Below, piece by piece: positions 1,969-17,319 of a stretch of DNA of 17,319 nucleotides (positions are counted from its first letter, which is position 1; every line of letters starts with the position of its first letter). Under the pieces are notes generated by a model. The model saw only the letters and a list, made by a program, of their open reading frames with translations, was not told where the DNA came from and searched no databases. The DNA comes from a virus. Lineage: Duplodnaviria; Heunggongvirae; Uroviricota; Caudoviricetes. Location: the IMG/VR virus record IMGVR_UViG_2547132281_000005; one strand, 5' to 3'. The position numbers and the translations under genes were made by a program.

Positions 1969-2185
1969 CAACCGCAGCACGTTCTTGCTTAAGACGAGCT
2001 GCGGCATAATCCCAATGATTACTCCCTGACAGGGTTCGTAGGCCACTCAATATCAGGTGCAGTTGATGTATCAACACGGTTCAGCAACACCCGATACTTT
2101 TTCCAGGCTTCCAGCAATGAGGTTTCTTCCTCCGTTGCAATTTCCAGATCTGCAGCATCCTGAAGCGGCGCAATATGCTCACTGG
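1969..2185. repeat. Direct repeat copy B (tfa 3' end plus downstream hairpin)
   Basis: Partner of 919-1135; contains hairpin 1972-2004 immediately after the convergent stops of the methyltransferase and tfa. Confidence 0.7.
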
Positions 2186-2603
2186 CTACCTGCATCAGGT
2201 TGTTTTTTGTTTCTTCCGCCTCCCGGATCCGGAACAGTTTTTCTGCTTCCGTATCCTTCACCCAGGCTGTGCCGTTCCACTTCTGAAACTCCCCTTCCGG
2301 CGATAACCAGGTAACATTTTCCGGTAACGGACCGAGTTCAGAAATAAATAACTCGTCCCCTGACGCTACGTCATAAACCGTTTTACCCCGATGGTCTTCA
2401 ACGAGATGCCACGATGCCTCATCACTGTTGAAAACAGCCACAAAGCCAGCAGGAATATCTGGTGGTGCAATATCGGTACTGTTTGCTGGCAGACCTGTAT
2501 GAGGCGGAATATATGCGTCACCTTCACCAATAAATTCATTAGTTCCGGCCAGCAGATTATAAATTTTTATGGTCCGTGCTTGTTCACTCATTCTGAATGC
2601 CAT
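2019..2603 (-). CDS. tfa: Tail fibre assembly protein Tfa (194 aa)
   Basis: Same length as lambda Tfa (194 aa) and conserved Tfa C-terminal block. Its ATG (2603-2601) overlaps the stop of the upstream fibre ORF in a TAATG arrangement, as in the lambda stf-tfa pair. Confidence 0.85.
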
Positions 2604-3550
2604 TATGCAAGCCTCACAATATAGTTAAATGCGATGTTTTTGACGGTGTTTTCCGCGTTACCCGCAGCGTTAACGGTGATGGTGTGTCCATGTGAACCAA
2701 TCGCAACGGAGTGCGTATGCGCACCAATACCTACAGTATGTGCATGTGCGCCAGAACTTGCTGCAGTACCAGACAGCGAGTGGGTATGAGCACCTGCTGA
2801 CTGTGTCTGAATACGTTGATAATACGATCTATAGGAAGAAGTCTCCGGGCTTACTTGATACTGTGAATTCTGGACATAAGTGAACCCACCGCCATCATAA
2901 AATGCTAACGCAGAACCGCCGCCTCCTGGCCAACGAATACCATTACCATGAGTATGAACACCGGCAGACCCCGTAGAGCCACTCAGACTGTGCGTATGCG
3001 CCCCGGTGTTATTCGTGGATTTAGTGCCGTAATCAAACGACGATGTGGTTTTCGTCCCCAAATCCGTACTGGATGCGCTGGCGCTGTGGGTGTGCGATTT
3101 AATGCCGTCCTGTTCCTGAGACAATACGGCCCGGCCACTGGCGGGTTTGCCCTTGATTGTCCAGCCGCGCATATCTGGAATAACACCTGAAGGATAGGCA
3201 ATAGCCAGTTTCGGATATGCTGCCTTATCAAACGTCTGCCCCTGCATGATTGCATAACCTGCAGGTGGTGTATCTGATGGCCACGGCAGCGGAACACCTG
3301 GCGGAAACGCTTCAATATTTGCCGAGCCGTCAAATTTTACGCCGTTAATTGTCCTTGCAGTTTGCAATTTGGTTGCTGTGCTTGCATTAGTCGAGGCTAA
3401 GGGCTTTTTTAACCTCGCATCCGCGCCTGCGGTAACACTGAATGAGCCATTCGGCCTGTTCTTCAGTGCATGGGGGGTGCTGGTACCAGTCTGACTTAAA
3501 TGCATGAGAATACCGCTCGTGCGTGTGGGCAAGAACGGTCGAATTATCAT
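2603..3550 (-). CDS. stf: Side tail fibre protein, C-terminal fragment (lambda orf-314-like), N-terminally truncated
   Basis: 315-aa ORF rich in G/S/T/A with repeated GAHTHS / HxH motifs and a [13 protein letters not shown] block typical of Stf C-terminal regions. The frame hits a stop at 3602-3604 just upstream and the ATG at 3550 has no RBS, so the N-terminal shaft portion is missing. Confidence 0.6.
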
Positions 3551-3578
3551 GATTGTAATATTTTGCGTTGCGTGCCAT
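3387..3578 (-). CDS. Hypothetical 63-aa protein overlapping the stf fragment in another frame
   Basis: ATG at 3578 preceded by GGAGA with a 6-nt spacer; sequence is not fibre-like ([23 protein letters not shown]...). Could instead be a chance ORF. Confidence 0.35.
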
Positions 3579-3644
3579 CGGTTTTCTCCGGTGGCACGGT
3601 GTTACTCAGCGGGAGTTCAGCCCCGCGCAAGATTGTAGATGAGT

Positions 3645-3896
3645 TTATTCTTCTGAAAAAGCAGAAAAGCCAGCTTTTATTCCGATCTCTTTCAATGCCT
3701 GTAATGAAGTGACAAACTCACCGTCGCGCAAGATAAATCCGTCCGTCACTCGGGCATCCACAAAATTAATTAACGCAGCCCCATTTTTTTGCAAACACAC
3801 AATGCGGTAATGACTAACAATATTTCCATTTTCAACGCACACAGCATAGAGGCCATCTTCACAAAAAATTTTACGCAGTTCTTCGATGTTCATCAT
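3645..3896 (-). CDS. Hypothetical 83-aa protein
   Basis: Tandem ATG ATG at 3896-3891 preceded by GGAAGGA with a 5-nt spacer. No recognisable family. Confidence 0.5.
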   Translation of the reverse strand: MMNIEELRKIFCEDGLYAVCVENGNIVSHYRIVCLQKNGAALINFVDARVTDGFILRDGEFVTSLQALKEIGIKAGFSAFSEE

Positions 3897-4011
3897 CAGA
3901 ATCCTTCCGGATAATTAGCTCTCCCCTTTAAGGGACCATCCCTCTTATCCCTGCGCGCTACTTAAGTATTTTTGATTCTATTCCGGCACCGTCCAGAACT
4001 TCAAACGCGTT

Positions 4012-4043
4012 GAAAATAAAAACAAAAACCCGCCGAAGCGGGT
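4012..4043 (-). terminator. Rho-independent terminator of the hok transcript
   Basis: On the minus strand: stem ACCCGC / GCGGGT (4028-4043) with 4-nt loop, followed by TTTTTGTTTTTATTTT (complement of 4012-4027). Confidence 0.55.
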
Positions 4044-4112
4044 TAAGTGCGGGTGCGTTGAGGATGCCTGCCACATCAGAGGTGGCGAGGGATTTCTCCC
4101 TCGCCGGGTCTC

Positions 4113-4268
4113 TTACTCCTCAGGTTCGTAAGCTGTGAAGACAGCGACCTCCGTCTGGCCGGTTCGGATTCGTACCTCGCAGAGGTCTTTCCTCGTTACC
4201 AGTGCCGTCACTATGACGGTTAAACAGATGACGATCAGGGCGATTAGCATCGCCTTTTGCTGCTTCAT
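4113..4268 (-). CDS. hok: Hok/Gef family type I toxin (51 aa)
   Basis: MKQQKAMLIALIVICLTVIVTALVTRKDLCEVRIRTGQTEVAVFTAYEPEE closely matches the Hok/Gef family as I recall it. ATG at 4268 preceded by GGAGA; stop TAA at 4113-4115. Confidence 0.85.
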   Translation of the reverse strand: MKQQKAMLIALIVICLTVIVTALVTRKDLCEVRIRTGQTEVAVFTAYEPEE

Positions 4269-4325
4269 AGCCTGCTTCTCCTTGCCTTTCGGCACGTAAG
4301 AGGCTAACCTACGTGTGTAGAGCAT
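4113..4325 (-). CDS. mok: Mok (modulator of killing) reading frame, in-frame N-terminal extension of hok
   Basis: 70-aa ORF sharing the stop and frame with hok, as in chromosomal mokC/hokC. Confidence 0.55.
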   Translation of the reverse strand: MLYTRRLASYVPKGKEKQAMKQQKAMLIALIVICLTVIVTALVTRKDLCEVRIRTGQTEVAVFTAYEPEE

Positions 4326-4370
4326 AGGTATGGCCTCAGATTAATGTTAAGCGTCTTGCCGGACGCGTAA
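4295..4370 (+). ncRNA. sok: Putative Sok-like antisense RNA (position inferred, boundaries approximate)
   Basis: Inferred from hok/sok organisation: the antisense RNA should overlap the mok initiation region. A plus-strand hairpin GCGTC-ttgccg-GACGC lies at 4351-4366 but lacks a clean U-run, so the end is uncertain. Confidence 0.25.
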
Positions 4371-4443
4371 TGTTAACTGGGGCTTTTCTCTATCTGCCTT
4401 TGGTGTTGATGCCCGAGGCAGATAGCCTCAAGCACCCGCAGCA

Positions 4444-4472
4444 ATTCTACTTAACTACCGTTACCTCGCCAA
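4444..4472 (-). promoter_or_regulatory. Candidate sigma-70 promoter for the hok/mok mRNA
   Basis: Minus strand reads TTGGCG (complement of 4467-4472), 17-nt spacer, TAGAAT (complement of 4444-4449). A 9-bp stem 4390-4398 / 4417-4425 sits in the predicted 5' leader. Confidence 0.4.
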
Positions 4473-4479
4473 TATGAAA

Positions 4480-4569
4480 TCAATCAGAAAGGTGATCCAT
4501 AAGAACAACAGCAAGACAATAAATTGCCATTACAGCAGCAATAGCCAGCGCACATTTGAGAACCAGCAC
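4480..4569 (-). CDS. Candidate small hydrophobic peptide (29-30 aa, type I toxin-like)
   Basis: AGGAGG (complement of 4575-4580), 5-nt spacer, GTG at 4569; encodes VLVLKCALAIAAVMAIYCLAVVLMDHLSD, then TGA (4482-4480). The DNA here is TGY-repetitive and open in several frames, so this may be chance. Confidence 0.25.
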   Translation of the reverse strand: MLVLKCALAIAAVMAIYCLAVVLMDHLSD

Positions 4570-4947
4570 CACAACCTCCTGTATTGGACGTACACCAGTC
4601 CTGATAAATATGAGGCTGTCTCGTCAGTGATTCAATACAACTACTGGGTATAGTTTCTATGATTTTGTTCTGTGGAAATGGAAAACAGCAACCAGTCACC
4701 ACCAGCACTTCTTTAAACATGCCAAGTCACACGCAAGCCAACATTATAGTTCCCTTTGAGCGAGCAGATGAAGCTAGCAAAAATATTGATCACTTAGGAT
4801 GCATTACTAACGTTGCTATGTGTTAACGAACAGGGAGTGGGTCATCAGCATAAATATTTATGCAGTAGGTTTCTTTTAGGACTAGATTAATCAAAAACAT
4901 TTAGATAAAATTATAAAATCAAGAAATTGGTGGCAATTAATCTTTAA

Positions 4948-4976
4948 TTGTGCCAGCTGAATTTCGTTATTATAGA
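4948..4976 (+). promoter_or_regulatory. Candidate promoter for the membrane-protein/methyltransferase operon
   Basis: TTGTGC (4948-4953), 17-nt spacer, TATAGA (4971-4976) in an AT-rich region upstream of the GGAGAG SD and ATG at 5011. Confidence 0.3.
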
Positions 4977-5326
4977 AGATTAGCTTTTTTTTGAATGTTT
5001 GGAGAGTAAAATGTTAGAACCACCAAAGAGTTATAATGAAATGTTGCCTATGCTCCATAAGGCGACTTTTATTACTACATTTATATTTTACCTATCATTA
5101 GTCATTTATGGCTACATGCCATTGGTTGGCATTAATGCCAAGTATATCCCCCCCGTTAAAGACTACGAGGAATTTATTAAATGGATATTAACCTTTGGCA
5201 TATTACCAATTGCATCTTCAGTTTTTTGGTCAGTAATTAGTGGAGCTTTAGATCTACATAATAATGTAGCAAAAATTATTGGAATAAGGAAGATGTGGGA
5301 TAGTCATTTAATTATTAAACCATTAG

Positions 5327-6521
<1,195 letters not shown>

Positions 6522-10520: not shown

Positions 10521-10968
10521 TTGCTTTTTCTATAAGTTCGTCAGTTTCACGATCCACTACGGCAGGATCAGCAAAAAGCAGTCCGGACTCCACCACATCG
10601 CCATATTCTTTGTTTAACCCGGCGATCATGTACGTGATGCTTTTTCCGTCACTAATTTCACGATACAACCTGAAATCATTAATCCGGATAGCCTCCATAA
10701 TTGCAGGCACTAGCGCCGTGAACTTTTCACGCTTATCCCTGGTGTCGATAGCCTTCCAGCGTTCGAATATCTTCACTCGATTAACGCCAAGCGCTCGCTG
10801 ATCAACCGCGCCACCTTCATCTGTGACACGCTGAACATCGATGTTCGGGCGCTCTTTCAAAGCCCAGAATGCTTCAGTGATTAATATCGTCGCCTGCTCC
10901 TGTGTCATTCCTGGTCGACATATCCAGGCATCCAGAGCCTCACGAGCCTGTTCAGGAGTGATTTTCAT
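10447..10968 (-). CDS. Hypothetical 173-aa protein in the cII / YdaT position
   Basis: Lies between the Cro-like gene and the replication gene on the same strand and overlaps the Cro-like stop by 17 nt. Family assignment is positional only. Confidence 0.55.
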   Translation of the reverse strand: MKITPEQAREALDAWICRPGMTQEQATILITEAFWALKERPNIDVQRVTDEGGAVDQRALGVNRVKIFERWKAIDTRDKREKFTALVPAIMEAIRINDFRLYREISDGKSITYMIAGLNKEYGDVVESGLLFADPAVVDRETDELIEKAIAFKLAYRQQYQQKAGWNYEPSFC

Positions 10969-11179
10969 TGTTCAACCGCCCCGCCCGCTTCGTCTTACGA
11001 TATTCGTCATAAACCTTGGGATCATACAGAAGCTCGCCGCCAGATGCCTCCTGTAGACGCATCGCGCGACCTTCAGGAACTAGCTCTTGCCATTGAGAAA
11101 CAGCAGATGGGTCAACGCCAGCAGCTTTCGCTACTTTGGCTTTCGTACCGTAAAAATTAATTACGTCTGATTTAAACAT
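10952..11179 (-). CDS. Cro-like / YdaS-like HTH regulator (about 75 aa)
   Basis: ATG at 11179 preceded by GGAGG (complement of 11184-11188) with a 4-nt spacer; HTH segment TKAKVAKAAGVDPSAVSQW; divergent from the repressor gene. Confidence 0.65.
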   Translation of the reverse strand: MFKSDVINFYGTKAKVAKAAGVDPSAVSQWQELVPEGRAMRLQEASGGELLYDPKVYDEYRKTKRAGRLNNENHS

Positions 11180-11191
11180 CGCACCTCCAAT

Positions 11192-11207
11192 ATTGAGTTT
11201 TCTCAAT
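11192..11207. promoter_or_regulatory. Palindromic operator candidate in the divergent repressor/cro promoter region
   Basis: Perfect 16-bp palindrome ATTGAGTTTTCTCAAT; the same TTGAGTTTTCTCA core recurs twice at 11729-11778. Confidence 0.45.
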
Positions 11208-11664
11208 GCTAATCACTCAAGGAATCTCAAGTCAAGGATTATTAAGATATCTAAATATGAACGAGAAAACTTTAGGTCAACGCATTAGAGAAAGACGTAA
11301 GCAGGTAGGCTTAAGTCAAAACGGTTTAAGCAAAGCTGCTGGCGTATCTGGCTCATCAATTTCATTATGGGAAAGTGACCATACAGCCCCGCGCGGGCAA
11401 AATTTGCATCGCCTCGCCGAGGTATTGCAATGTTCACCAACCTGGATACTGTTTGGCGACGAGGACAAAACACCAGCTCCCCCTGTTTCACTCGATAGTA
11501 CCCTAGACTTATCGGAAGATGAGTTAGAGATGCTGCGTTTGTATCGCGCACTTCCTAAATCAGAGCAACAAGCACAACTCAGCGAACTCCGCGCCCGCGT
11601 TGAGAATTTTAATCGCCTGTTCACCGAGCTATTAGAGGCTCGCAAACGCAACAAGCATCAATAA
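11206..11664 (+). CDS. cI/C2-like prophage repressor, N-terminal HTH (XRE family), no S24 peptidase domain
   Basis: From the internal ATG 11257 the protein starts MNEKTLGQRIRERRKQVGLSQNGLSKAAGVSGSSISLWE, like the P22 C2 / RacR-type N-terminus as I recall it. Either 11206 or 11257 may be the start; both lack a strong SD (possibly leaderless). Confidence 0.8.
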   Translation: MLITQGISSQGLLRYLNMNEKTLGQRIRERRKQVGLSQNGLSKAAGVSGSSISLWESDHTAPRGQNLHRLAEVLQCSPTWILFGDEDKTPAPPVSLDSTLDLSEDELEMLRLYRALPKSEQQAQLSELRARVENFNRLFTELLEARKRNKHQ

Positions 11665-11728
11665 TCATCCCTTCACAAAATTTTAAAGCCTTACATTTCA
11701 ATGTATTGGCTTTATCTTGCGCCAACAC

Positions 11729-11780
11729 TTGAGTTTTCTCATCAAAAAACCTTGACGAAAAATAATGAGAAAACTAAATT
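11729..11780 (+). promoter_or_regulatory. Candidate early-left promoter flanked by operator half-sites
   Basis: TTGACG (11752-11757), 17-nt spacer, TAAATT (11775-11780), bracketed by the inverted repeat TTGAGTTTTCTCAT (11729-11742) / ATGAGAAAACT (11765-11775). Confidence 0.4.
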
Positions 11781-11856
11781 ACCTCCATCAACACACCGCA
11801 CGGTGTTCTCCGCAAACAGTTCCGCTACCCCGGCGTTAAGGGGAAATGAGGTCAGC

Positions 11857-12012
11857 ATGGATACTATCGATCTTGGCAACAACGAATCTCTGGTGTACGG
11901 CGTGTTTCCAAACCAGGACGGCACGTTCACCGCAATGACGTATACCAAAAGCAAAACGTTTAAAACCGAAAATGGTGCCCGTCGCTGGCTGGAAAGAAAC
12001 TCAGGTGAGTGA
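11857..12012 (+). CDS. Hypothetical 51-aa protein (YdaF-like position and size)
   Basis: ATG 11857 with GAGG 5 nt upstream; MDTIDLGNNESLVYGVFPNQDGTFTAMTYTKSKTFKTENGARRWLERNSGE; stop TGA 12010-12012. Confidence 0.55.
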   Translation: MDTIDLGNNESLVYGVFPNQDGTFTAMTYTKSKTFKTENGARRWLERNSGE

Positions 12013-12013
12013 T

Positions 12014-12142
12014 ATGGATTTCGACACAATCATGGAAAAGGCTTACGAAGAATACTTCGAAGGCCTTGCCGAAGGCGAAGAAGCTCTCAGCTTCAGTGAG
12101 TTTAAACAGGCGCTTTCCAGCTCGGCAAAATCTAACGGCTGA
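12014..12142 (+). CDS. Hypothetical 42-aa acidic protein (YdaG-like position and size)
   Basis: ATG 12014 two nt after the upstream stop, with AGGTGA 5 nt upstream; MDFDTIMEKAYEEYFEGLAEGEEALSFSEFKQALSSSAKSNG. Not in the ORF track because it is under 60 aa. Confidence 0.4.
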   Translation: MDFDTIMEKAYEEYFEGLAEGEEALSFSEFKQALSSSAKSNG

Positions 12143-12171
12143 TAAGCGAAGCAGCACCGCGAGGAATCAGT

Positions 12172-12390
12172 ATGCAGAAACGAGAACCCGTCATCATCGC
12201 GCCAGACTATACCGATGATGAACTTTATGAGTGGATGCACCAGAAAATTAATGCAGCGCAGGATCTGAAATGGGCCAATGAAGCCAGGGCTAAGCAGGCT
12301 GAAAATCTGTCCGCTCTGGAGCAGGATATCACTAATCTGGAAAAAGCAGCGGCATTAAGCATTGCCAGAATGATTACATACCCGCGTTAA
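12172..12390 (+). CDS. Hypothetical 72-aa protein
   Basis: ATG 12172 with GAGGAA 5 nt upstream; stop TAA 12388-12390. Confidence 0.6.
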   Translation: MQKREPVIIAPDYTDDELYEWMHQKINAAQDLKWANEARAKQAENLSALEQDITNLEKAAALSIARMITYPR

Positions 12391-12393
12391 TAG

Positions 12394-12791
12394 CTAACCA
12401 ACGAAGCTAAGGTTGGTAATTAAGGAGTTCTCCACGGATGAGGTGGAGTGCGTGCGCCGGACACGGGTGAGCATCCGGCACAGACAGTTTACTGAAAGGA
12501 TATTTCCCTGAAAGGTCAGACCATAACGCGAAAGCGCACGGCGAGGTAGCTGGTTCATAGATAGCCTGTCGTTAAATTTTCGTCGACCGTGCGCTTCCGG
12601 TTGTGGCAATCCGCGAAATGGCGCGGCGGTGAGTATGGCGGGGTTATTCCTTCCCCGTTGAGGACACCGGGTTGTCAGGTTGACCATACGCTTAAGTGAC
12701 AACCCCGCTGCAACGCCCTCTGTTATCAATTTTCTGGTGACGTTTGGCGGTATCAGTTTTACTCCGTGACTGCTCTGCCGCCCTTTTTAAA
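12394..12791 (+). ncRNA. GC-rich structured non-coding region (candidate ncRNA or structured leader), strand assumed from the flanking operon
   Basis: No plausible ORF on either strand. Consecutive perfect stems: ACCAAC/GTTGGT (12397-12417), CTCCAC/GTGGAG (12430-12448), GCCGGA/TCCGGC (12456-12479), CGC-GAAA-GCG (12527-12536), GCGCACGG/CCGTGCGC (12534-12594), CCGCG/CGCGG (12611-12626), CGGGG/CCCCG (12639-12657), GGGTTGTCA/TGACAACCC (12669-12705), and GGCGG...CCGCC followed by CTTTTT (12746-12788). Confidence 0.3.
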
Positions 12792-12795
12792 GTGA

Positions 12796-12937
12796 ATTTT
12801 GTGATGCGGTGAATGCGGCTGAGCGCACGCGGAACAGTTAAAACCAAAAACAGTGTTATGGGTGGATTCTCTGTATCCGGCGTTAATTGTTAACTGGTTA
12901 ACGTCACCTGGAAGCACCAGGCACCGCATCACAAAAT
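12796..12937. repeat. Perfect 16-bp inverted repeat pair bracketing about 110 bp
   Basis: ATTTTGTGATGCGGTG (12796-12811) and its exact reverse complement CACCGCATCACAAAAT (12922-12937); interior carries GTTAAC-tg-GTTAAC palindromic sites. Confidence 0.5.
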
Positions 12938-12957
12938 TCATTGTTGAGGACGCGATA

Positions 12958-13146
12958 ATGGAAACGTTATTACCAAACGTTAATACGTCTGAAGGTTGTT
13001 TTGAAATTGGTGTCACTATCAGTAACCCTGTATTTACTGAAGATGCCATTAACAAGAGAAAACACGAACGGGAGCTATTAAATAAAATATGCATTCTTTC
13101 AATGTTGGCCCGTTTACGTCCGATACAAAAAGGATGCTGGCAATGA
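12958..13146 (+). CDS. Hypothetical 62-aa protein
   Basis: ATG 12958 with GAGGA 7 nt upstream; its stop TGA (13144-13146) overlaps the next ATG in an ATGA arrangement. Confidence 0.45.
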   Translation: METLLPNVNTSEGCFEIGVTISNPVFTEDAINKRKHERELLNKICILSMLARLRPIQKGCWQ

Positions 13147-13334
13147 ATACAGCATTTGCACTTGTTCTGACAGTTTTTCTTGTTTCCGGAGAGCCAGTTG
13201 ATATTGCAGTCAGTGTTCACAGGACAATGCAGGAGTGTGTGACTGCAGCAACCGAACAGAAAATTCCCGGTAACTGTTACCCGGTCGATAAAGTTATTCA
13301 CCAGGATAATAACGAAATCCCGGCAGGTCTTTAA
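13143..13334 (+). CDS. Small exported protein candidate (63 aa, N-terminal hydrophobic signal-like segment, two Cys)
   Basis: ATG 13143 with AAAGGA 8 nt upstream; MNTAFALVLTVFLVSGEPVDIAVSVHRTMQECVTAATEQKIPGNCYPVDKVIHQDNNEIPAGL. Confidence 0.5.
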   Translation: MNTAFALVLTVFLVSGEPVDIAVSVHRTMQECVTAATEQKIPGNCYPVDKVIHQDNNEIPAGL

Positions 13335-13426
13335 AACAGTTCCGTAATAAACATCCGATTTCATTCTTATATGCCAGCAATGGCAGGGATTTGTTCACCC
13401 TTAAATCTGTAATGAGGTAAAACAAA

Positions 13427-15898
13427 ATGAGTAAAGTCTTTATTTGCGCCGCCATTCCGGACGAACAGGCAATAAAGGAAGAAGGTGCCGTCGCTGTAGC
13501 CACTGCCATTGAAGCCGGTGATGAACGTCGCGCCCGCGCAAAATTTCACTGGCAATTCCTGGAACATTATCCGGCTGCTCAGGACTGCGCTTATAAATTT
13601 CTTGTTTGCGAGGATAAACCCGGTATACCCCGCCCTGCCCTCGATTCCTGGGATGCTGAATATATGCAGGAAAACCGCTGGGATGAGGCGTCTGCTTCCT
13701 TTGTCCCGGTCGAGACTGAATCCGATCCGATGAACGTCACTTTTGACAACCTAGCCCCTGAAGTACAGAACGCTGTCATGGTTAAGTTCCACACATGTGA
13801 AAAAATCACTGTTGATATGGTGATTAGCGCACAGGAATTGTTGCAGGAAGACATGGCAACATTCGACGGCCATATCGTTGAAGCGTTGATGAAAATGCCA
13901 GAAGTTAACGCTATGTATCCGGAGCTTAAGCTGCATGCCATCGGGTGGGTTAAGCATAAATGTAAGCCTGGTGCCAAATGGCCCGAAATTCAGGCAGAGA
14001 TGCGCATCTGGAAAAAACGTCGCGAAGGTGAACGCAAGGAAGCCGGAAAATACACGTCTGTTGTTGATCTCGCCCGCGCCAGAGTCAATCAACAGCACAC
14101 TGAAAATTCAACAGGAAAAATCAACCCGGTCATTGCTGCCATTCATCGCGAATACAAGCAGACATGGAAAACACTGGATGACGAACTGGCCTACGCTCTC
14201 TGGCCTGGTGATGTGGATGCCGGAAACATTGACGGCAGCATCCATCGCTGGGCAAAAAATGAAGTTATCGACAACGACCGCGAAGACTGGAAGCGTATCT
14301 CGGCATCAATGCGCAAACAGCCTGATGCCCTTCGCTACGACCGCCAGACTATTTTTGGCCTTGTCCGTGAACGTCCGATCGACATTCACAAAGACCCTGT
14401 GGCACTGAACAAATACATTACTGAATACCTGACTACAAAGGGCGTGTTTGAAGATGAAGGAAGAAATCAGAGCGCAACTGATACTCTCTCGTCGCCAGTA
14501 CCAGAAACTGATGCAGTGGAAACGGCAATTCCGGACAACGAAAAAACCGAATGCAAAGTGGAAGTCGAACCATCTGTAGAGCGTGAGGGGCCGTTCTACT
14601 TCCTCTTCACCGACAAGGATGGCGAAAAATACGGTCGCGCAAACAAACTTTCTGGTCTGGATAAGGCGCTGGCTGCCGGGGCAACTGAAATCACGAAAGA
14701 AGAATATTTTGCCCGCAAAAACGGCACATACACAGGTTCACAACAAAATACTGATGCATCTGACACGACCGCACAACCAGACCTGGTAAAAGTTACCGCT
14801 GACGAAGTAAACAAAATTATGCAGGCAGCCAGTATCAGCCAGCCTGACGCTAATAAGTTGCTCGCTGCATCACGTGGTGAATTTGTTGAAGGGATTAGCG
14901 ACCCGAATGATCCGAAATGGGTGAAGGGGATTGAAACCCGCGATTCTGTGCACCAGAACCAGTCAGAAACGGAACAGTACGACCAAAAAGCGGAACAAAA
15001 CAGCCAAAATGCGTTACAAAACGAGCCAGAAACGAAACAACCTGAACCAGTCGTGCAACAGGAAGAGGAAAAAGTTTGTACCGCATGCAATCAGACTGGT
15101 GGTGGTAACTGCCCTGATTGTGGCGCAGTGATGGGTGACGCAACCTACCAGGAGACATTCAACGAAGAAAGCCAGGATGAAGCCCGGGAAAAAGATCCAG
15201 AGGAAATAGAAAATGCCGGACTCCCGAACAAGGAGTGCACCGAAGGCGATCAACATGCCAATGACAATAATGAAATAGGCGAGACAGCAAATCCCTTAAT
15301 TAAGGTGAACAGTCATCGTAAAAGCACATCCACCAGCAGGTTGTGGCACCATCTGATGATTGACCTTGAAACCATGGGAAAAAATCCTGATGCCCCGATT
15401 ATCTCAATAGATGCAATATTTTTCGATCCGCAAACCGGAGATATGGGACCGGAATTTAGTAAGACTATCGATCTGGAAACTGCTGGCGGAGTCATTGATC
15501 GTGACGTCATTAAAAGGTGGCTGAAGCAATCACGTGAAGCGCAGTCTGCCATTATGACCGATGAAATCCCGTTAGATGATGCACTGTTACAATTGCGGGA
15601 ATTTATCGACGAAAACTCCGGTGAATTTTTTGTTCAGGTCTGGGGAAATGGAGCCAACTTCGAAAACACGATTTTGCGCCGTTCATACGAACGGCAGGGG
15701 ATCCCCTGCCCATGGCGTTACTACAACGATCGCGATGTACGCACAATCGTTGAGCTGGGGAAAGCCATAGACTTCGATGCCAGAACGGCTATTCCATTCG
15801 AAGGTGAGCGCCATAATGCACTTGATGACGCCCGTTACCAGGCAAAATACGTTTCAGTTATCTGGCAAAAACTGATCCCGAATCAGGCTGATTTTTAA
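13427..15898 (+). CDS. Large multidomain protein (823 aa) with C-terminal DnaQ/Orn-like DEDDh 3'-5' exonuclease domain
   Basis: ATG 13427 with GAGG upstream. Central acidic/Gln-rich linker and CxxC-x9-CxxC zinc-ribbon-like motif (CTACNQTGGGNCPDCG, about 15076-15123). C-terminal about 185 aa (15341-15895) carry MIDLETMG (Exo I), VWGNGANFENTIL (Exo II-like) and HNALDDARYQAKY (Exo III). Confidence 0.85.
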   Translation: MSKVFICAAIPDEQAIKEEGAVAVATAIEAGDERRARAKFHWQFLEHYPAAQDCAYKFLVCEDKPGIPRPALDSWDAEYMQENRWDEASASFVPVETESDPMNVTFDNLAPEVQNAVMVKFHTCEKITVDMVISAQELLQEDMATFDGHIVEALMKMPEVNAMYPELKLHAIGWVKHKCKPGAKWPEIQAEMRIWKKRREGERKEAGKYTSVVDLARARVNQQHTENSTGKINPVIAAIHREYKQTWKTLDDELAYALWPGDVDAGNIDGSIHRWAKNEVIDNDREDWKRISASMRKQPDALRYDRQTIFGLVRERPIDIHKDPVALNKYITEYLTTKGVFEDEGRNQSATDTLSSPVPETDAVETAIPDNEKTECKVEVEPSVEREGPFYFLFTDKDGEKYGRANKLSGLDKALAAGATEITKEEYFARKNGTYTGSQQNTDASDTTAQPDLVKVTADEVNKIMQAASISQPDANKLLAASRGEFVEGISDPNDPKWVKGIETRDSVHQNQSETEQYDQKAEQNSQNALQNEPETKQPEPVVQQEEEKVCTACNQTGGGNCPDCGAVMGDATYQETFNEESQDEAREKDPEEIENAGLPNKECTEGDQHANDNNEIGETANPLIKVNSHRKSTSTSRLWHHLMIDLETMGKNPDAPIISIDAIFFDPQTGDMGPEFSKTIDLETAGGVIDRDVIKRWLKQSREAQSAIMTDEIPLDDALLQLREFIDENSGEFFVQVWGNGANFENTILRRSYERQGIPCPWRYYNDRDVRTIVELGKAIDFDARTAIPFEGERHNALDDARYQAKYVSVIWQKLIPNQADF

Positions 15899-15962
15899 TG
15901 TTCAACCCCGGTCGTTGCCCACCAGCTATAGTGGCGGCGACCATGATTAGCGAACGACGCTC

Positions 15963-16211
15963 ATGGCAAGACTTATTCTGCTCACTGAGTGGGCAAAAGA
16001 GGAATTCAGTGAACCGGTCCCAACTCCGAGTACGTTAAGTAAATACGCTAAAGCCGGAATGATATTTCCTCTCCCCAAAAAAGTTGGAAGACGCTGGCGA
16101 GTGGATCCGCAAGCTCGCTTTGTCGGAATGGTAAACAAGCCGGAGGTGATCGCCACAGATCACCCTGCTTTGAAGAGGATACTGGAAGATGGCGCGCCCG
16201 CGAAAATATAA
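15963..16211 (+). CDS. xis: Excisionase (Xis)-like protein, 82 aa
   Basis: Small basic protein immediately upstream of and overlapping the integrase start; KYAKAGMIFPLPKKVGRRWRV resembles excisionase-type DNA-binding motifs. Confidence 0.7.
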   Translation: MARLILLTEWAKEEFSEPVPTPSTLSKYAKAGMIFPLPKKVGRRWRVDPQARFVGMVNKPEVIATDHPALKRILEDGAPAKI

Positions 16212-17319
16212 AACCAATGTTCCGGGATTATCTCCTTATTTTGACAAAAGAAATAACAAAGTTTACTGGCGTTACAGGCATCCCATAACAGGCAAAAATC
16301 ACGGTCTCGGCAGTATTGACCAGAAACTGGCAGAAACTATTGCAGCAGAAGCGAACAGCCGTCTTGCCCGGCAGCAAATGGAACAAATGCTCAGTCTGCA
16401 GGAGAAAATTATTAGTGATACCGGCGGTTCATCAACCGTTACCATTTTTCTGAATAATTACAGAAAAATTCAACAGGAAAGATATGAAAACGGCGAGATC
16501 AAACTCAACACGCTGAAACAGAAAGCGGCCCCTCTCAGGGTATTTGATGAACGTTTTGGCACCAGACCGTTAGATGCCATAACCGTAAAAGATGTGGTAT
16601 CAGTACTGGAAGAGTACAAGGCCAGAGGACATAACAGAATGGGACAAATTTTCAGGAAGGTACTGATCGATGTTTTCCGGGAAGCTCAGCAAACGGGCGA
16701 TGTCCCGCCAGGCTTTAACCCTGCAGAATCGGCAAAAAAACCGCAGGTGCGGATATCAAGACAGCGACTGACTTTTGATGAGTGGATGATGATTTATAAC
16801 GCAGCGGAAAAGGATGGTTACTTTTTACAGCGCGGTATGCTGCTGGCACTGATGACAGGCCAGCGCCTTTCAGATATTTGCAAAATGCAATTTTCGGATA
16901 TCCGGGATGGTTATCTTCATGTCGAACAGCAAAAAACAGGAACCCGGATTGCCATCCCTCTGGCTCTGCGTTGCGATAAATTAAATCTCACCCTGGATGA
17001 TGTAGTGTCATCCTGCCGCGATTGTGTTCTTAGTCCGTGGCTATTGCACCACCATCACGCGAAAGGGACAGCTAAGCGCGGCGGGATGGTTAAGCCAGCA
17101 ACATTAACCGTTGCATTTAAAAAAGCCCGGGATTCTGTGGATTACAACTGGCGTGCTAATGGCACCCCACCCTCTTTCCATGAGCAGAGATCTTTATCAG
17201 AGCGATTGTTCAGAGAGCTGGGGGTTGATACCAAAATTTTGCTAGGCCATTCGAATCAAAAAATGACCGATATTTACAACGATGTACGCGGTAAGGAGTG
17301 GAAAAAACTGGTCATTTGA
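16189..17319 (+). CDS. int: Lambda-family tyrosine integrase (376 aa)
   Basis: N-terminal arm-binding motif LSPYFDKRNNKVYWRYRHPITGKNHGLG parallels lambda Int (LPPNLYIRNNGYYCYRDPRTGKEFGLG); C-terminus LLGHSNQKMTDIYNDV carries the catalytic Tyr region. Stop TGA is the last codon of the window. Confidence 0.9.
   Translation: MARPRKYKTNVPGLSPYFDKRNNKVYWRYRHPITGKNHGLGSIDQKLAETIAAEANSRLARQQMEQMLSLQEKIISDTGGSSTVTIFLNNYRKIQQERYENGEIKLNTLKQKAAPLRVFDERFGTRPLDAITVKDVVSVLEEYKARGHNRMGQIFRKVLIDVFREAQQTGDVPPGFNPAESAKKPQVRISRQRLTFDEWMMIYNAAEKDGYFLQRGMLLALMTGQRLSDICKMQFSDIRDGYLHVEQQKTGTRIAIPLALRCDKLNLTLDDVVSSCRDCVLSPWLLHHHHAKGTAKRGGMVKPATLTVAFKKARDSVDYNWRANGTPPSFHEQRSLSERLFRELGVDTKILLGHSNQKMTDIYNDVRGKEWKKLVI

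Follow-up and report, generated by a model that had tools for sequence, protein, structure and literature searches.

A predicted operator map for a probably heteroimmune DicA/DicC-type immunity switch in a Qin-like prophage

Main finding

The viral DNA analysed here (17,319 nucleotides, below called the window) carries a repeated motif on both sides of a repressor gene. We consider it likely, with a probability of roughly 0.85 given the sequence comparisons made, that these copies serve as operators for a DicA/DicC (P22-type) switch, in a heteroimmune allele carried by a Qin-like lambdoid prophage. Among the phage P22-like DicA/DicC immunity switches found in Qin-type prophages of E. coli, this one is an ordinary variant.

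Results

Layout of the immunity locus

The features on which the analysis is based are listed by position; operators and promoters are predicted, and operator sites are given without strand.

3648..3896, minus strand: rem, antirepressor gene; 83-aa ORF, 100% identity with the Rem annotated in strain B-1109
10952..11179, minus strand: cro-like gene (DicC homologue, 75 aa); PGAP CDS, Pfam P22_Cro E=3e-16
11192..11207: O1, strong operator, ATTGAG-TTTT-CTCAAT; counterpart of K-12 Oc and P22 OR1
11206..11235, minus strand: cro promoter (dicCp equivalent), -35 TTGACT 11235-11230, 18 bp, -10 TAGCAT 11211-11206; consensus scan
11215..11232: Om, weak operator-like site, ACTCAAG-GAAT-CTCAAGT; P22 OR2 position
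11241..11256: Oa, weak operator-like palindrome, ATTAAG-ATAT-CTAAAT = ATTAAGATATCTAAAT, adjoining the repressor ATG at 11257; position of P22 OR3 and K-12 Oa
11257..11664, plus strand: repressor gene (DicA homologue, 135 aa); HTH_3 E=2.5e-15, start per PGAP
11684..11714, plus strand: hairpin between repressor stop and O2; RNA fold -11.3 kcal/mol, z = -3.5
11728..11743: O2, operator, CTTGAG-TTTT-CTCATC, upstream of the -35; P22 OL2 position, matrix rank 2
11752..11780, plus strand: dicBp-equivalent (PL-like) promoter, TTGACG 11752-11757, 17 bp, TAAATT 11775-11780; consensus scan
11764..11779: O3, operator, ATTTAG-TTTT-CTCATT on the minus strand, between -35 and -10; P22 OL1 position, matrix rank 3
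11857..17319, plus strand: operon proposed as controlled (ydfA, ydfB, ydfC, DicF, dicB, DUF1482, exonuclease, xis, int); PGAP annotation of the identical region
12732-12783, plus strand: DicF RNA; Rfam 76.7 bits
12958-13146, plus strand: dicB; from the translation
13427-15898, plus strand: exonuclease
15963-16211, plus strand: xis
16189 onward, plus strand: int

With this gene set, in which Pfam DUF1391 was also found, the locus is the immunity region of a Qin-type (lambdoid) prophage. The rem product is 94% identical to K-12 Rem. At least 80% of a 1.3-kb query for the window allele is covered in 766 of 5,426 complete E. coli genomes, and the allele is also present in O157:H7 and in the isolated phage HannyBb, whose repressor is 99.3% identical.

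The repressor and the Cro-like protein

The repressor and cro-like genes are divergently transcribed from the operator-bearing region. The repressor is 57% identical to K-12 DicA over 127 aligned residues, with equal length and a more conserved C-terminal half, and the Cro-like protein is 70% identical to K-12 DicC and 47% to P22 Cro. In both comparisons with K-12 the differences are concentrated in the helix-turn-helix. The best solved match of the repressor is the N-terminal domain of P22 c2 (1ADR/2R1J), over residues 1-72 and with identical residue numbering. Matches to P22 c2 end at residue 72. The C-terminal domain, of the DicA type, has no relation to the oligomerisation domain of c2/CI, and neither cooperativity nor looping can therefore be assumed. 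A LexA-like (S24) RecA-cleavable domain is absent from the 135-aa repressor, for which Pfam returns helix-turn-helix families only.

A preliminary description of this DNA had favoured the ATG at 11257 over the upstream ATG at 11206 as the repressor start, and five observations agree with that choice. It is the start called by RefSeq/PGAP; its M1 lines up with the M1 of both P22 c2 and the 135-aa DicA; the upstream ATG is missing in Buttiauxella L005 and in L028; positions 11206-11256 contain the -10 and -35 of the cro promoter as well as Oa; and the P22 repressor maintenance transcript begins only 4 nt before its ATG.

Copies of the motif and their expected frequency

Exact copies of TTGAGTTTTCTCA occur in the window at 11193-11205 and 11729-11741 on the plus strand, and the minus strand at 11766-11778 reads TTTAGTTTTCTCA, an inverted copy with one mismatch to that core. 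The recurrence of the core as an inverted pair downstream of the repressor gene, as described before, thus holds in both coordinates and sequence, apart from the single mismatch. The site around the first copy (11192-11207, ATTGAGTTTTCTCAAT) had been called a perfect 16-bp palindrome; this is incorrect, as only 12 of the 16 positions are self-complementary, and the layout is one of 6-bp inverted arms (ATTGAG/CTCAAT) around a non-palindromic TTTT centre.

The repeated motif is real and lies well past chance level. Base composition predicts approximately 0.0008 exact copies of the 13-mer per whole window (0.0005 in the two intergenic regions) and 0.03 copies per whole window if one mismatch is allowed. 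Using a weight matrix of the arms only, O1, O2 and O3 take ranks 1, 2 and 3 among 17,304 positions, O1 having the highest score in the window. These composition-based expectations and the matrix ranking were used to judge chance in place of a loose shuffle test with up to two mismatches, which reached three matches in 9 of 200 shuffles and is weak taken alone. A 'longest repeat' statistic on Markov shuffles was dropped, being inflated by local palindromes. The motif is not common background either: the 11-mer core with at most one mismatch gave 20 off-target matches in 1.19 Mb of related viral contigs against about 19 expected, which is the chance level.

The preliminary description had overlooked two weak operator-like sites in the divergent region, Om and Oa. 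A candidate fourth copy at 11260-11275, containing the 9-mer GAGAAAACT at 11263-11271 at the start of the repressor gene, was rejected: it ranks 106 with the arms matrix and is missing from Buttiauxella and other relatives (locus L062 retains it). The match is probably a by-product of the codons for N-E-K-T. A literal search of papers for the operator sequence of the window allele returned no match.

The cro side

O1 covers the last 2 bp of the cro-promoter -10 plus the start site predicted by the consensus scan, and its sequence is identical in Buttiauxella. The predicted start for cro is at about 11199 on the minus strand; the repressor mRNA is predicted to begin at 11253-11256 on the plus strand and to be leaderless. 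The -35 of this promoter (AGTCAA) is unchanged across all alleles and P22. Om combines one good half-site (TTGAG, minus strand) with a poor one and ranks 15 with the matrix; its TGAG half-site is kept in the family, and in a manual comparison 14 of its 18 positions are identical to P22 OR2 (ACTAAACGAATCTTTAGT), which falls in the same alignment columns. Oa ranks 5 of 17,304 and is nearly invariant, at a constant distance of 49 bp to O1 in 115 of 115 loci; it is a candidate for a site preferred by Cro. The cro side of the window holds one strong and two weak predicted sites, spaced 24/25 bp.

The downstream promoter

The rightward promoter TTGACG-17-TAAATT reported downstream of the repressor gene was recovered by the consensus scan. 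It is the sole consensus promoter on the plus strand between its position and the window end, with a start predicted at A11787 inside a conserved CCATCA. The operator pair brackets its -35 as claimed: O2 ends 8 bp before this element, and O3 begins 6 bp past it and shares 5 bp with the -10. The O3 half-site in the -10 is always TTAG and is the source of the TA of the -10. Among 41 spacer variants compared, conservation between O2 and O3 is limited to the -35. With 36 bp (~3.4 helical turns) between their centres, the two operators are not placed in an obvious way for cooperativity of adjacent dimers.

No third operator was found at the OL side of the window. A conserved TTTCAATGT(A/G)TTG upstream of O2 was discarded as a possible OL3; it has half-site similarity at best and lies within the hairpin. 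None of 200 shuffles was as stable as this hairpin, the U-tail of which is poor, and it is likely a weak terminator that insulates the downstream promoter. Searching the viral contigs for flipped O2/O3 orientations gave 0 matches and 1 unrelated match; the fixed orientation may simply be inherited, because P22 OL2 also has a TTTT centre. Folding the conserved leader that follows the promoter gave an uninformative consensus.

Conservation and co-variation across alleles

O1 was absent from the search pattern used to collect viral contigs, and the conservation of O2 and O3 in the 119 contigs found is by construction; only O1 and the loci of Buttiauxella and E. coli give independent evidence of conservation. 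Of 110 viral contigs picked solely by O2..O3, 108 have O1 as well, approximately 536 bp upstream of O2, and a DicA-like 135-aa protein is encoded between the sites in every contig with enough upstream sequence. The Buttiauxella loci, found through protein similarity, keep all of O1-O3 within diverged flanks (their repressors are 73-76% identical).

Four allele types were distinguished, given here as repressor helix, Cro helix and operator.

Window allele: SGSSISLWESD, VDPSAVSQW, TGAG-TTTT-CTCA
K-12 allele: SHVSVSQWERG, IRLASLYSW, TGTTAGT-CATA-ACTAACA
E. coli L132 allele: AHVTISQWERD, VRLASVAAW, TGTTAGA-CTTT-TCTAACA
C. braakii allele: intermediate type

Across these types all three operator positions change jointly, in step with the recognition helices of repressor and Cro. 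In C. braakii the Cro helix is of the window type (VDRSAVSQW) and Oa is identical, whereas neither the repressor helix nor O1-O3 match that type. The same pattern is seen in its seven near-identical viral copies, all of one lineage. Searching for more recombinant alleles through the C. braakii-type Oa returned near-identical copies of that one lineage and unrelated matches only.

Discussion

Alternative explanations

The strongest competitor holds that O1-O3 are mainly operators of Cro, or serve both proteins equally, with the specificity of the repressor lying elsewhere. Repressor and Cro use the same operators in lambda and P22, Cro helix and operator type vary together for three of the four alleles, and the K-12 DicC protein has ChIP-seq peaks at the dicCp and dicB promoters (PMC11430063). 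However, C. braakii and its seven viral copies share the window-type Cro helix and Oa but are of another type in the repressor helix and in O1-O3, therefore O1-O3 track the repressor; also, K-12 DicA acts sequence-specifically at Oc in vivo (PMC3441716). We regard a main role for Cro as unlikely, and the proposal is a refinement more than a real rival, shared use being expected.

It is very improbable that the inverted repeats act in RNA, as hairpins with a 6-bp stem and a loop of UUUU, such as one in the cro 5' leader near the Shine-Dalgarno sequence. O1 does lie in the predicted cro 5' leader, 3 nt from the GGAGGTG ribosome-binding site, and its arms could pair. However, O2 and O3 are upstream of the predicted start and hence outside the transcript, their arms are imperfect (CTTGAG/CTCATC and ATTTAG/CTCATT), and what is conserved is the identity of the half-sites. 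Moreover, in the other alleles the sequence is exchanged at each of the three places along with the DNA-binding helices, and the positions coincide with footprinted P22 operators. More remote still is the idea that the repeats are chance matches, inert remnants of a duplication or host-factor sites without a role for the repressor. The 9 of 200 shuffles with three matches at up to two mismatches speak for it; the expectations of 0.0008 exact and 0.03 near-exact copies per window, the position of the top three matrix matches exactly on promoter elements, their retention in diverged relatives and the chance-level off-target frequency in 1.19 Mb speak against it. The sites are also replaced as a set with the immunity genes, unlike a host-factor site.

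Proposed mechanism

Under the operator reading, a dimer of the 135-aa repressor would read a pair of 6-7-bp half-sites, (A)TTGAG, with a 4-bp A/T tract between them that is probably uncontacted, as in P22 c2 operators. Bound to O1 (11192-11207) it would cover the -10 and the start of the leftward cro promoter and, by analogy with K-12, may also support transcription of its own gene. Bound to O2 and O3 it would flank the -35, cover spacer and -10 and thereby block RNA polymerase. This would silence ydfABC-DicF-dicB, and via read-through also exonuclease, xis and int. DicF of K-12 has its own terminator, and control of these last three genes would thus depend on read-through. The same region should also be a target of the Cro-like protein, whose preferred site is likely Oa; from there it would shut off the repressor gene. 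Because the repressor lacks a LexA-like domain, induction is expected to proceed via the Rem antirepressor and not through RecA cleavage. Rem relieves DicA repression in K-12 (PMC10448788). Its presumed target is the conserved C-terminal half of the repressor.

A more speculative extension concerns the division of labour between the two proteins. Under the lambda/P22 scheme, repressor and Cro bind one set of operators, in competition and with affinities ranked in opposite order. The two proteins of the window might instead have largely private sites, which we consider doubtful. A hint in that direction comes from a single lineage, C. braakii, in which the repressor helix and O1-O3 have changed but neither Oa nor the Cro helix has. 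The repressor would then have shifted to TTGAG half-sites with the recognition helix G32/S33/S34/L37, and R46 may read the obligatory A-tract centre through the minor groove, whereas Cro would have stayed close to P22 in its helix (SAVSQW) and in its TTAAG site, Oa, over the repressor start.

Significance

The analysis provides a concrete, predicted operator map for a common and uncharacterised immunity allele of Qin-type prophages. The pairing of a repressor allele with the promoter it silences predicts cross-immunity, or its absence, among co-resident prophages, and four alleles with matched helices and operators form a small natural data set on the recognition code of P22 c2-type helix-turn-helix proteins. 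No concept is changed by this, the architecture having been known for K-12 since 1986-1988 and for P22 earlier.

Comparison with known systems

An immunity-like locus dicA-dicC-dicBp in the Qin cryptic prophage of E. coli K-12 was reportedly described by Bejar and colleagues in 1986 and 1988. The window has in common with it the gene order (dicC-like cro, 135-aa DicA-like repressor, then ydfABC-DicF-dicB) and the presence of rem upstream. DicA of K-12 binds Oc (TTGTTAGTCATAACTAACAA) in vivo in a sequence-specific manner, represses dicC and activates dicA, and showed no binding in vivo at Om and Oa (PMC3441716). The dicBp promoter is the source of the polycistronic dicBF RNA and is strongly repressed by DicA; the same paper treats the binding of DicA to the sites there as a prediction (PMC10448788). 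Operator positions agree between K-12 and the window within 1-2 bp: in each, the dicCp -10 shares 2 bp with a site that also covers the start site, a further site adjoins the repressor ATG, and of the two dicBp sites one lies 19 bp before the -35 centre and the other 16-17 bp beyond it. The centres of the downstream pair are 36 bp apart in the window against 35 bp in K-12. The operators themselves differ, however (TGAG-TTTT-CTCA in the window, TGTTAGT-CATA-ACTAACA in K-12), as do the recognition helices of repressor and Cro. On these sequence differences the window locus appears to have a different immunity specificity, being a heteroimmune allele with respect to K-12 DicA. Its operon is also intact through exonuclease, xis and int, whereas that of K-12 ends in pseudogenes. 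Gifsy-type prophages with GfoR/GfhR resemble the window in combining a short non-cleavable repressor with an antirepressor gene elsewhere in the prophage (rem in the window); the parallel is drawn from PMC10448788.

The control DNA of P22 is colinear with that of the window within 1-2 bp, over OR1-3/PR as well as OL2/OL1/PL. As genes, promoters and site positions line up with K-12 dicCp/dicBp and with both P22 control regions, the OR/OL-like arrangement suggested in the preliminary description is supported. The three sites at the OR side are spaced 23/25 bp in P22 and 24/25 bp in the window, and P22 OR3 adjoins the repressor ATG just as Oa does. In P22 each operator follows a 7+4+7 scheme whose centre is left uncontacted, and binding is best when that centre is an A-tract (PMC5175364, PMC4267663); the window operators are arranged likewise. 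O2 aligns with P22 OL2 (ATTTAAGTTTTCTTCAAA), which likewise has a TTTT centre. Differences concern the half-site (TTGAG in the window, TTAAG in P22), the recognition-helix positions 32, 33, 34 and 37 (G, S, S, L against N, V, A, Q), residues 44/46 (A/R against E/N) and the C-terminal domain of the repressor, which is of the short DicA type in the window and RecA-cleavable and LexA-like in P22. Also unlike P22, the window has a single strong site on its OR side and a pair on its OL side, with no counterpart of OL3, and no homologue of gene 24/N follows its PL-like promoter. P22 PL and the window promoter have in common the -35 TTGAC, the -10 TAAATT and CCATCA, the P22 start being annotated at that same A. 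The window promoter, the second one with predicted operators, lies beyond the repressor gene and reads away from it, as in lambdoid OL.

Putative operator sites and promoters

Re-reading of the sequence and a consensus promoter scan confirmed the sequences, the coordinates and the promoter that the preliminary description had reported for 11192-11780. The features of this region, with those of the adjacent operon, are as follows.

Features of the immunity region and operon
10952-11179, - strand: Cro, 75 aa, homologue of DicC
11192-11207: putative operator O1, ATTGAGTTTTCTCAAT, arms ATTGAG/CTCAAT, centre TTTT
11235-11206, - strand: leftward cro promoter, TTGACT (11235-11230), 18 bp, TAGCAT (11211-11206)
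11215-11232: weak operator-like site Om, ACTCAAGGAATCTCAAGT, one good and one poor half-site
11241-11256 (11240-11257 in the 18-bp P22 register): weak operator-like site Oa, ATTAAGATATCTAAAT, matrix rank 5, abutting the repressor ATG
11257-11664, + strand: repressor, 135 aa, homologue of DicA
11684-11714: hairpin between repressor stop and O2, -11.3 kcal/mol, z = -3.5
11728-11743: putative operator O2, CTTGAGTTTTCTCATC
11752-11780, + strand: rightward operon promoter, TTGACG (11752-11757), 17 bp, TAAATT (11775-11780)
11764-11779, - strand: putative operator O3, ATTTAGTTTTCTCATT
12732-12783: DicF RNA (Rfam)
12958-13146: dicB (translation)

O1 had been called a perfect 16-bp palindrome. Its inverted 6-bp arms are indeed perfect, but the TTTT centre is not self-complementary, leaving 12 of 16 positions palindromic. 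The 13-mer TTGAGTTTTCTCA has an exact second copy at 11729-11741, and the opposite strand at 11766-11778 reads TTTAGTTTTCTCA, with one mismatch. Oa, with P22-like half-sites (TTAAG/TTTAG), hardly varies among 115 loci.

An additional exact 9-mer, GAGAAAACT, equal to the O3 core, lies in repressor codons 3-5 (11263-11271). It is kept in one diverged locus (L062) but not in others such as Buttiauxella; coding constraint probably accounts for it, or it may be a weak autoregulatory site.

Background frequency of the motif

Base composition predicts 0.0008 further exact 13-mer copies over the whole 17.3 kb (0.03 with at most one mismatch) and 0.0005 within the two intergenic regions. A shuffle test allowing two mismatches gave at least three hits in 9 of 200 shuffles, which is much weaker than the composition-based expectation and makes this test unfit as sole evidence. 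A weight matrix that took only the 6-bp arms from family members and left the spacer unconstrained ranked O1 first, O2 second and O3 third over 17,304 positions. Related viral contigs totalling 1.19 Mb contained the 11-mer core (at most one mismatch) 20 times outside the three expected positions, against about 19 by chance; hence the motif is not a common background sequence, a possibility that the preliminary description had raised against its own proposal.

A palindromic pair, GAGTTTTCTCA-N17-TGAGAAAACTC, is also present at 5594-5633 of an unrelated viral contig (IMGVR_UViG_3300020112_001986). A search upstream of this pair found no DicA-like ORF, and it may be the operator of another repressor with a similar half-site.

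Conservation and co-variation with the DNA-binding proteins

Scanning viral contigs with a pattern for O2...O3 returned at least 119 loci, in which conservation of O2 and O3 follows from the construction of the pattern. Evidence independent of the pattern comes from O1 in the viral loci and from O1 to O3 in the loci of Buttiauxella and E. coli. Among the matches listed, O1 is located about 536 bp upstream in 108 of 110 loci, O2...O3 spans 45 bp (rarely 44), and only the -35 TTGAC is conserved in the interval, across at least 41 spacer variants. Every listed locus with sufficient upstream sequence carries a DicA-like protein of 133-135 aa immediately upstream; these show at least 23 sequence variants, with identities down to 67%. 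Two Buttiauxella loci, found by protein similarity and hence independently of the motif (repressors 76% and 73% identical), have GAGTTTTCTCA at each of the three positions, in intergenic DNA that has otherwise diverged.

Four alleles could be compared, each with its own operator sequence at every operator position.

Recognition helices and operators of four immunity alleles
Window type: repressor SGSSISLWESD; Cro VDPSAVSQW; operator TGAG-TTTT-CTCA
K-12 type: repressor SHVSVSQWERG; Cro IRLASLYSW; operator TGTTAGT-CATA-ACTAACA
E. coli L132: repressor AHVTISQWERD; Cro VRLASVAAW; operator TGTTAGA-CTTT-TCTAACA
Citrobacter braakii: repressor SHATISLWESD; Cro VDRSAVSQW; operator TGTTGAG-TTTA-TTTAACA

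Operator sets that are specific to each allele classically mark an immunity cassette. The sites might instead be bound by a host factor or act as RNA-level elements, but against both speaks that all operator positions change with the allele. Overall, the comparative evidence supports the OR/OL-like operator arrangement proposed earlier.

Prophage identity

Positions 10900-12200 are 100% identical to E. coli B-1109. The repressor is annotated from 11257 (135 aa), next to an opposite-strand 75-aa 'Cro/CI family' gene, and is followed by ydfA, ydfB, ydfC, dicB, a DUF1482 gene, exonuclease, excisionase and integrase. Pfam assigns HTH_3 to the repressor, P22_Cro to the divergent gene, YdaT_toxin to the gene after that and DUF1391 to ydfA. 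The locus is a Qin-type (dicBF) lambdoid prophage whose immunity allele is not the K-12 one. Megablast aligns K-12 with the query in the flanks only, as two pieces that together cover 46%. A single place covering at least 80% of the query exists in 766 of the 5,426 complete E. coli genomes, O157:H7 included, and the isolated phage HannyBb (PP925841) has the same sites and a 99.3% identical repressor.

Relative to B-1109, the immunity region and right arm are 98.5-100% identical. The window left of about 6520 is rearranged, with 3388-5326 matching at a shifted position and the remainder unmatched. Judged from these alignments, the prophage is a mosaic. Rfam also reports IS009 RNA and sok antitoxin RNA at 2062-2260 (-) and 4263-4437 (-); the sok match implies a hok/sok-type toxin-antitoxin locus beside rem.

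Repressor start and transcript boundaries

Several observations agree with the earlier preference for the ATG at 11257 as repressor start: the PGAP call, the alignment of M1 with M1 of both DicA and P22 c2, the lack of the 11206 ATG in one Buttiauxella locus (L005) and in locus L028, the occupation of 11206-11256 by the cro promoter -10 and -35 and two operator-like sites, and the P22 maintenance transcript, which begins 4 nt before the ATG. Since this P22 start is so close and no Shine-Dalgarno sequence precedes 11257, the analysis suggests a leaderless repressor mRNA. In HannyBb (5950-6408) the repressor is annotated as a 152-aa ORF; because its upstream ATG lies inside O1, this is probably an over-extension of the start codon.

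The hairpin at 11684-11714 probably terminates repressor transcripts ahead of the operon promoter. It contains TTTCAATGT(A/G)TTG, which is kept across diverged relatives. The consensus scan of the + strand from 11780 to the window end found no further promoter. The operon 5' leader (11787-11856) is conserved, with two possible hairpins (11793-11806 and 11822-11844) and an invariant GTTCCGC; its consensus fold was uninformative.

Proposed regulation

In the window, the sites sit on promoter elements, are conserved and co-vary with two DNA-binding proteins. On the cro promoter, a repressor dimer bound at O1 would span roughly -8 to +8; the operon promoter would be blocked by dimers occupying O2 (about -59 to -44) together with O3 (about -23 to -8). 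Cro would also act in this region and would probably prefer Oa: in C. braakii (one lineage only) the repressor helix and O1 to O3 differ, but neither Oa nor the Cro helix does. Repressor and Cro may each prefer a largely different set of sites; this is the one possibility here that is mildly unusual.

Induction would proceed through Rem, an antirepressor encoded at 3648-3896 (-). As Rem is 94% identical to its K-12 counterpart but the repressors only 57%, the comparison suggests that Rem targets the C-terminal half, which is conserved among DicA-type repressors, whatever the immunity allele.

Comparison with P22 and K-12

The solved structures nearest to the repressor are those of the P22 c2 N-terminal domain, free and DNA-bound (1ADR, 2R1J, 3JXB), which aligns with residues 1 to 72 in identical numbering; the Cro proteins of window and P22 share 47% identity. 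To either side of the repressor gene, the window is colinear with the annotated P22 immC. The cro promoter -35, AGTCAA, is invariant, O1-Om-Oa are centred 24 and 25 bp apart (23 and 25 bp for OR1-OR2-OR3), Om shares 14 of 18 positions with OR2 in a manual comparison, and Oa abuts the repressor ATG as OR3 does in P22. On the other side, O2 aligns with OL2 (ATTTAAGTTTTCTTCAAA; both have a TTTT centre) and O3 with OL1. The operon promoters have the same -10, TAAATT, and share the start-site motif CCATCA, from which we predict a transcription start at A11787. The leader occupies the place of P22 nutL, and no N/gene-24 homologue follows in the window.

P22 operators are 18 bp long (consensus ATTTAAGATATCTTAAAT) and contacted at positions 2-7 and 12-17, the four central bp remaining uncontacted (PMC5175364); binding is tightest with an A-tract centre, in which a narrow minor groove is pre-formed (PMC4267663). 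By homology, this accounts for the TTTT centre of the putative operators in the window, which need not be palindromic. The half-sites differ mainly at position 5 (TTGAG here, TTAAG in P22). The repressors differ at helix positions 32, 33, 34 and 37, and A44/R46 here replace E44/N46; that R46 reads the A-tract via the minor groove is speculation.

Compared with K-12, the repressor is 57% identical to DicA and Cro 70% to DicC, with the differences concentrated in both helix-turn-helix motifs. K-12 has its operator Oc, TTGTTAGTCATAACTAACAA (PMC3441716), in the dicC-dicA intergenic region, where it overlaps the dicC -10; the Oc-related ATGTTAGCTATAGCATACAA and ATGTTAGTCATGGCTAATCT flank the dicBp -35 TTGACC, the second covering the -10 TAATCT. 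In both systems 2 bp of the cro-promoter -10 fall within the upstream site, the first downstream site is centred 19 bp from the -35 centre in both, and the two downstream sites are 36 bp apart in the window and 35 bp in K-12 (centre to centre). An additional operator-like palindrome abuts the repressor ATG in the window and lies 2 bp before it in K-12. K-12 DicA was found at Oc in vivo, and not at Om or Oa in that assay; it acts as repressor of dicC and activator of dicA (PMC3441716). It strongly represses dicBp, the source of the dicBF transcript; DicA lacks a RecA cleavage site, and the antirepressor Rem lifts its repression (PMC10448788). DicC gives ChIP-seq peaks at these same promoters (PMC11430063).

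The operator sequence of this common allele was found in no paper of the library searched. The architecture itself is already known from P22 and from the work on K-12 dicA/dicC/dicB; between the window and K-12, the positions of the putative operators are conserved and their sequences are not.
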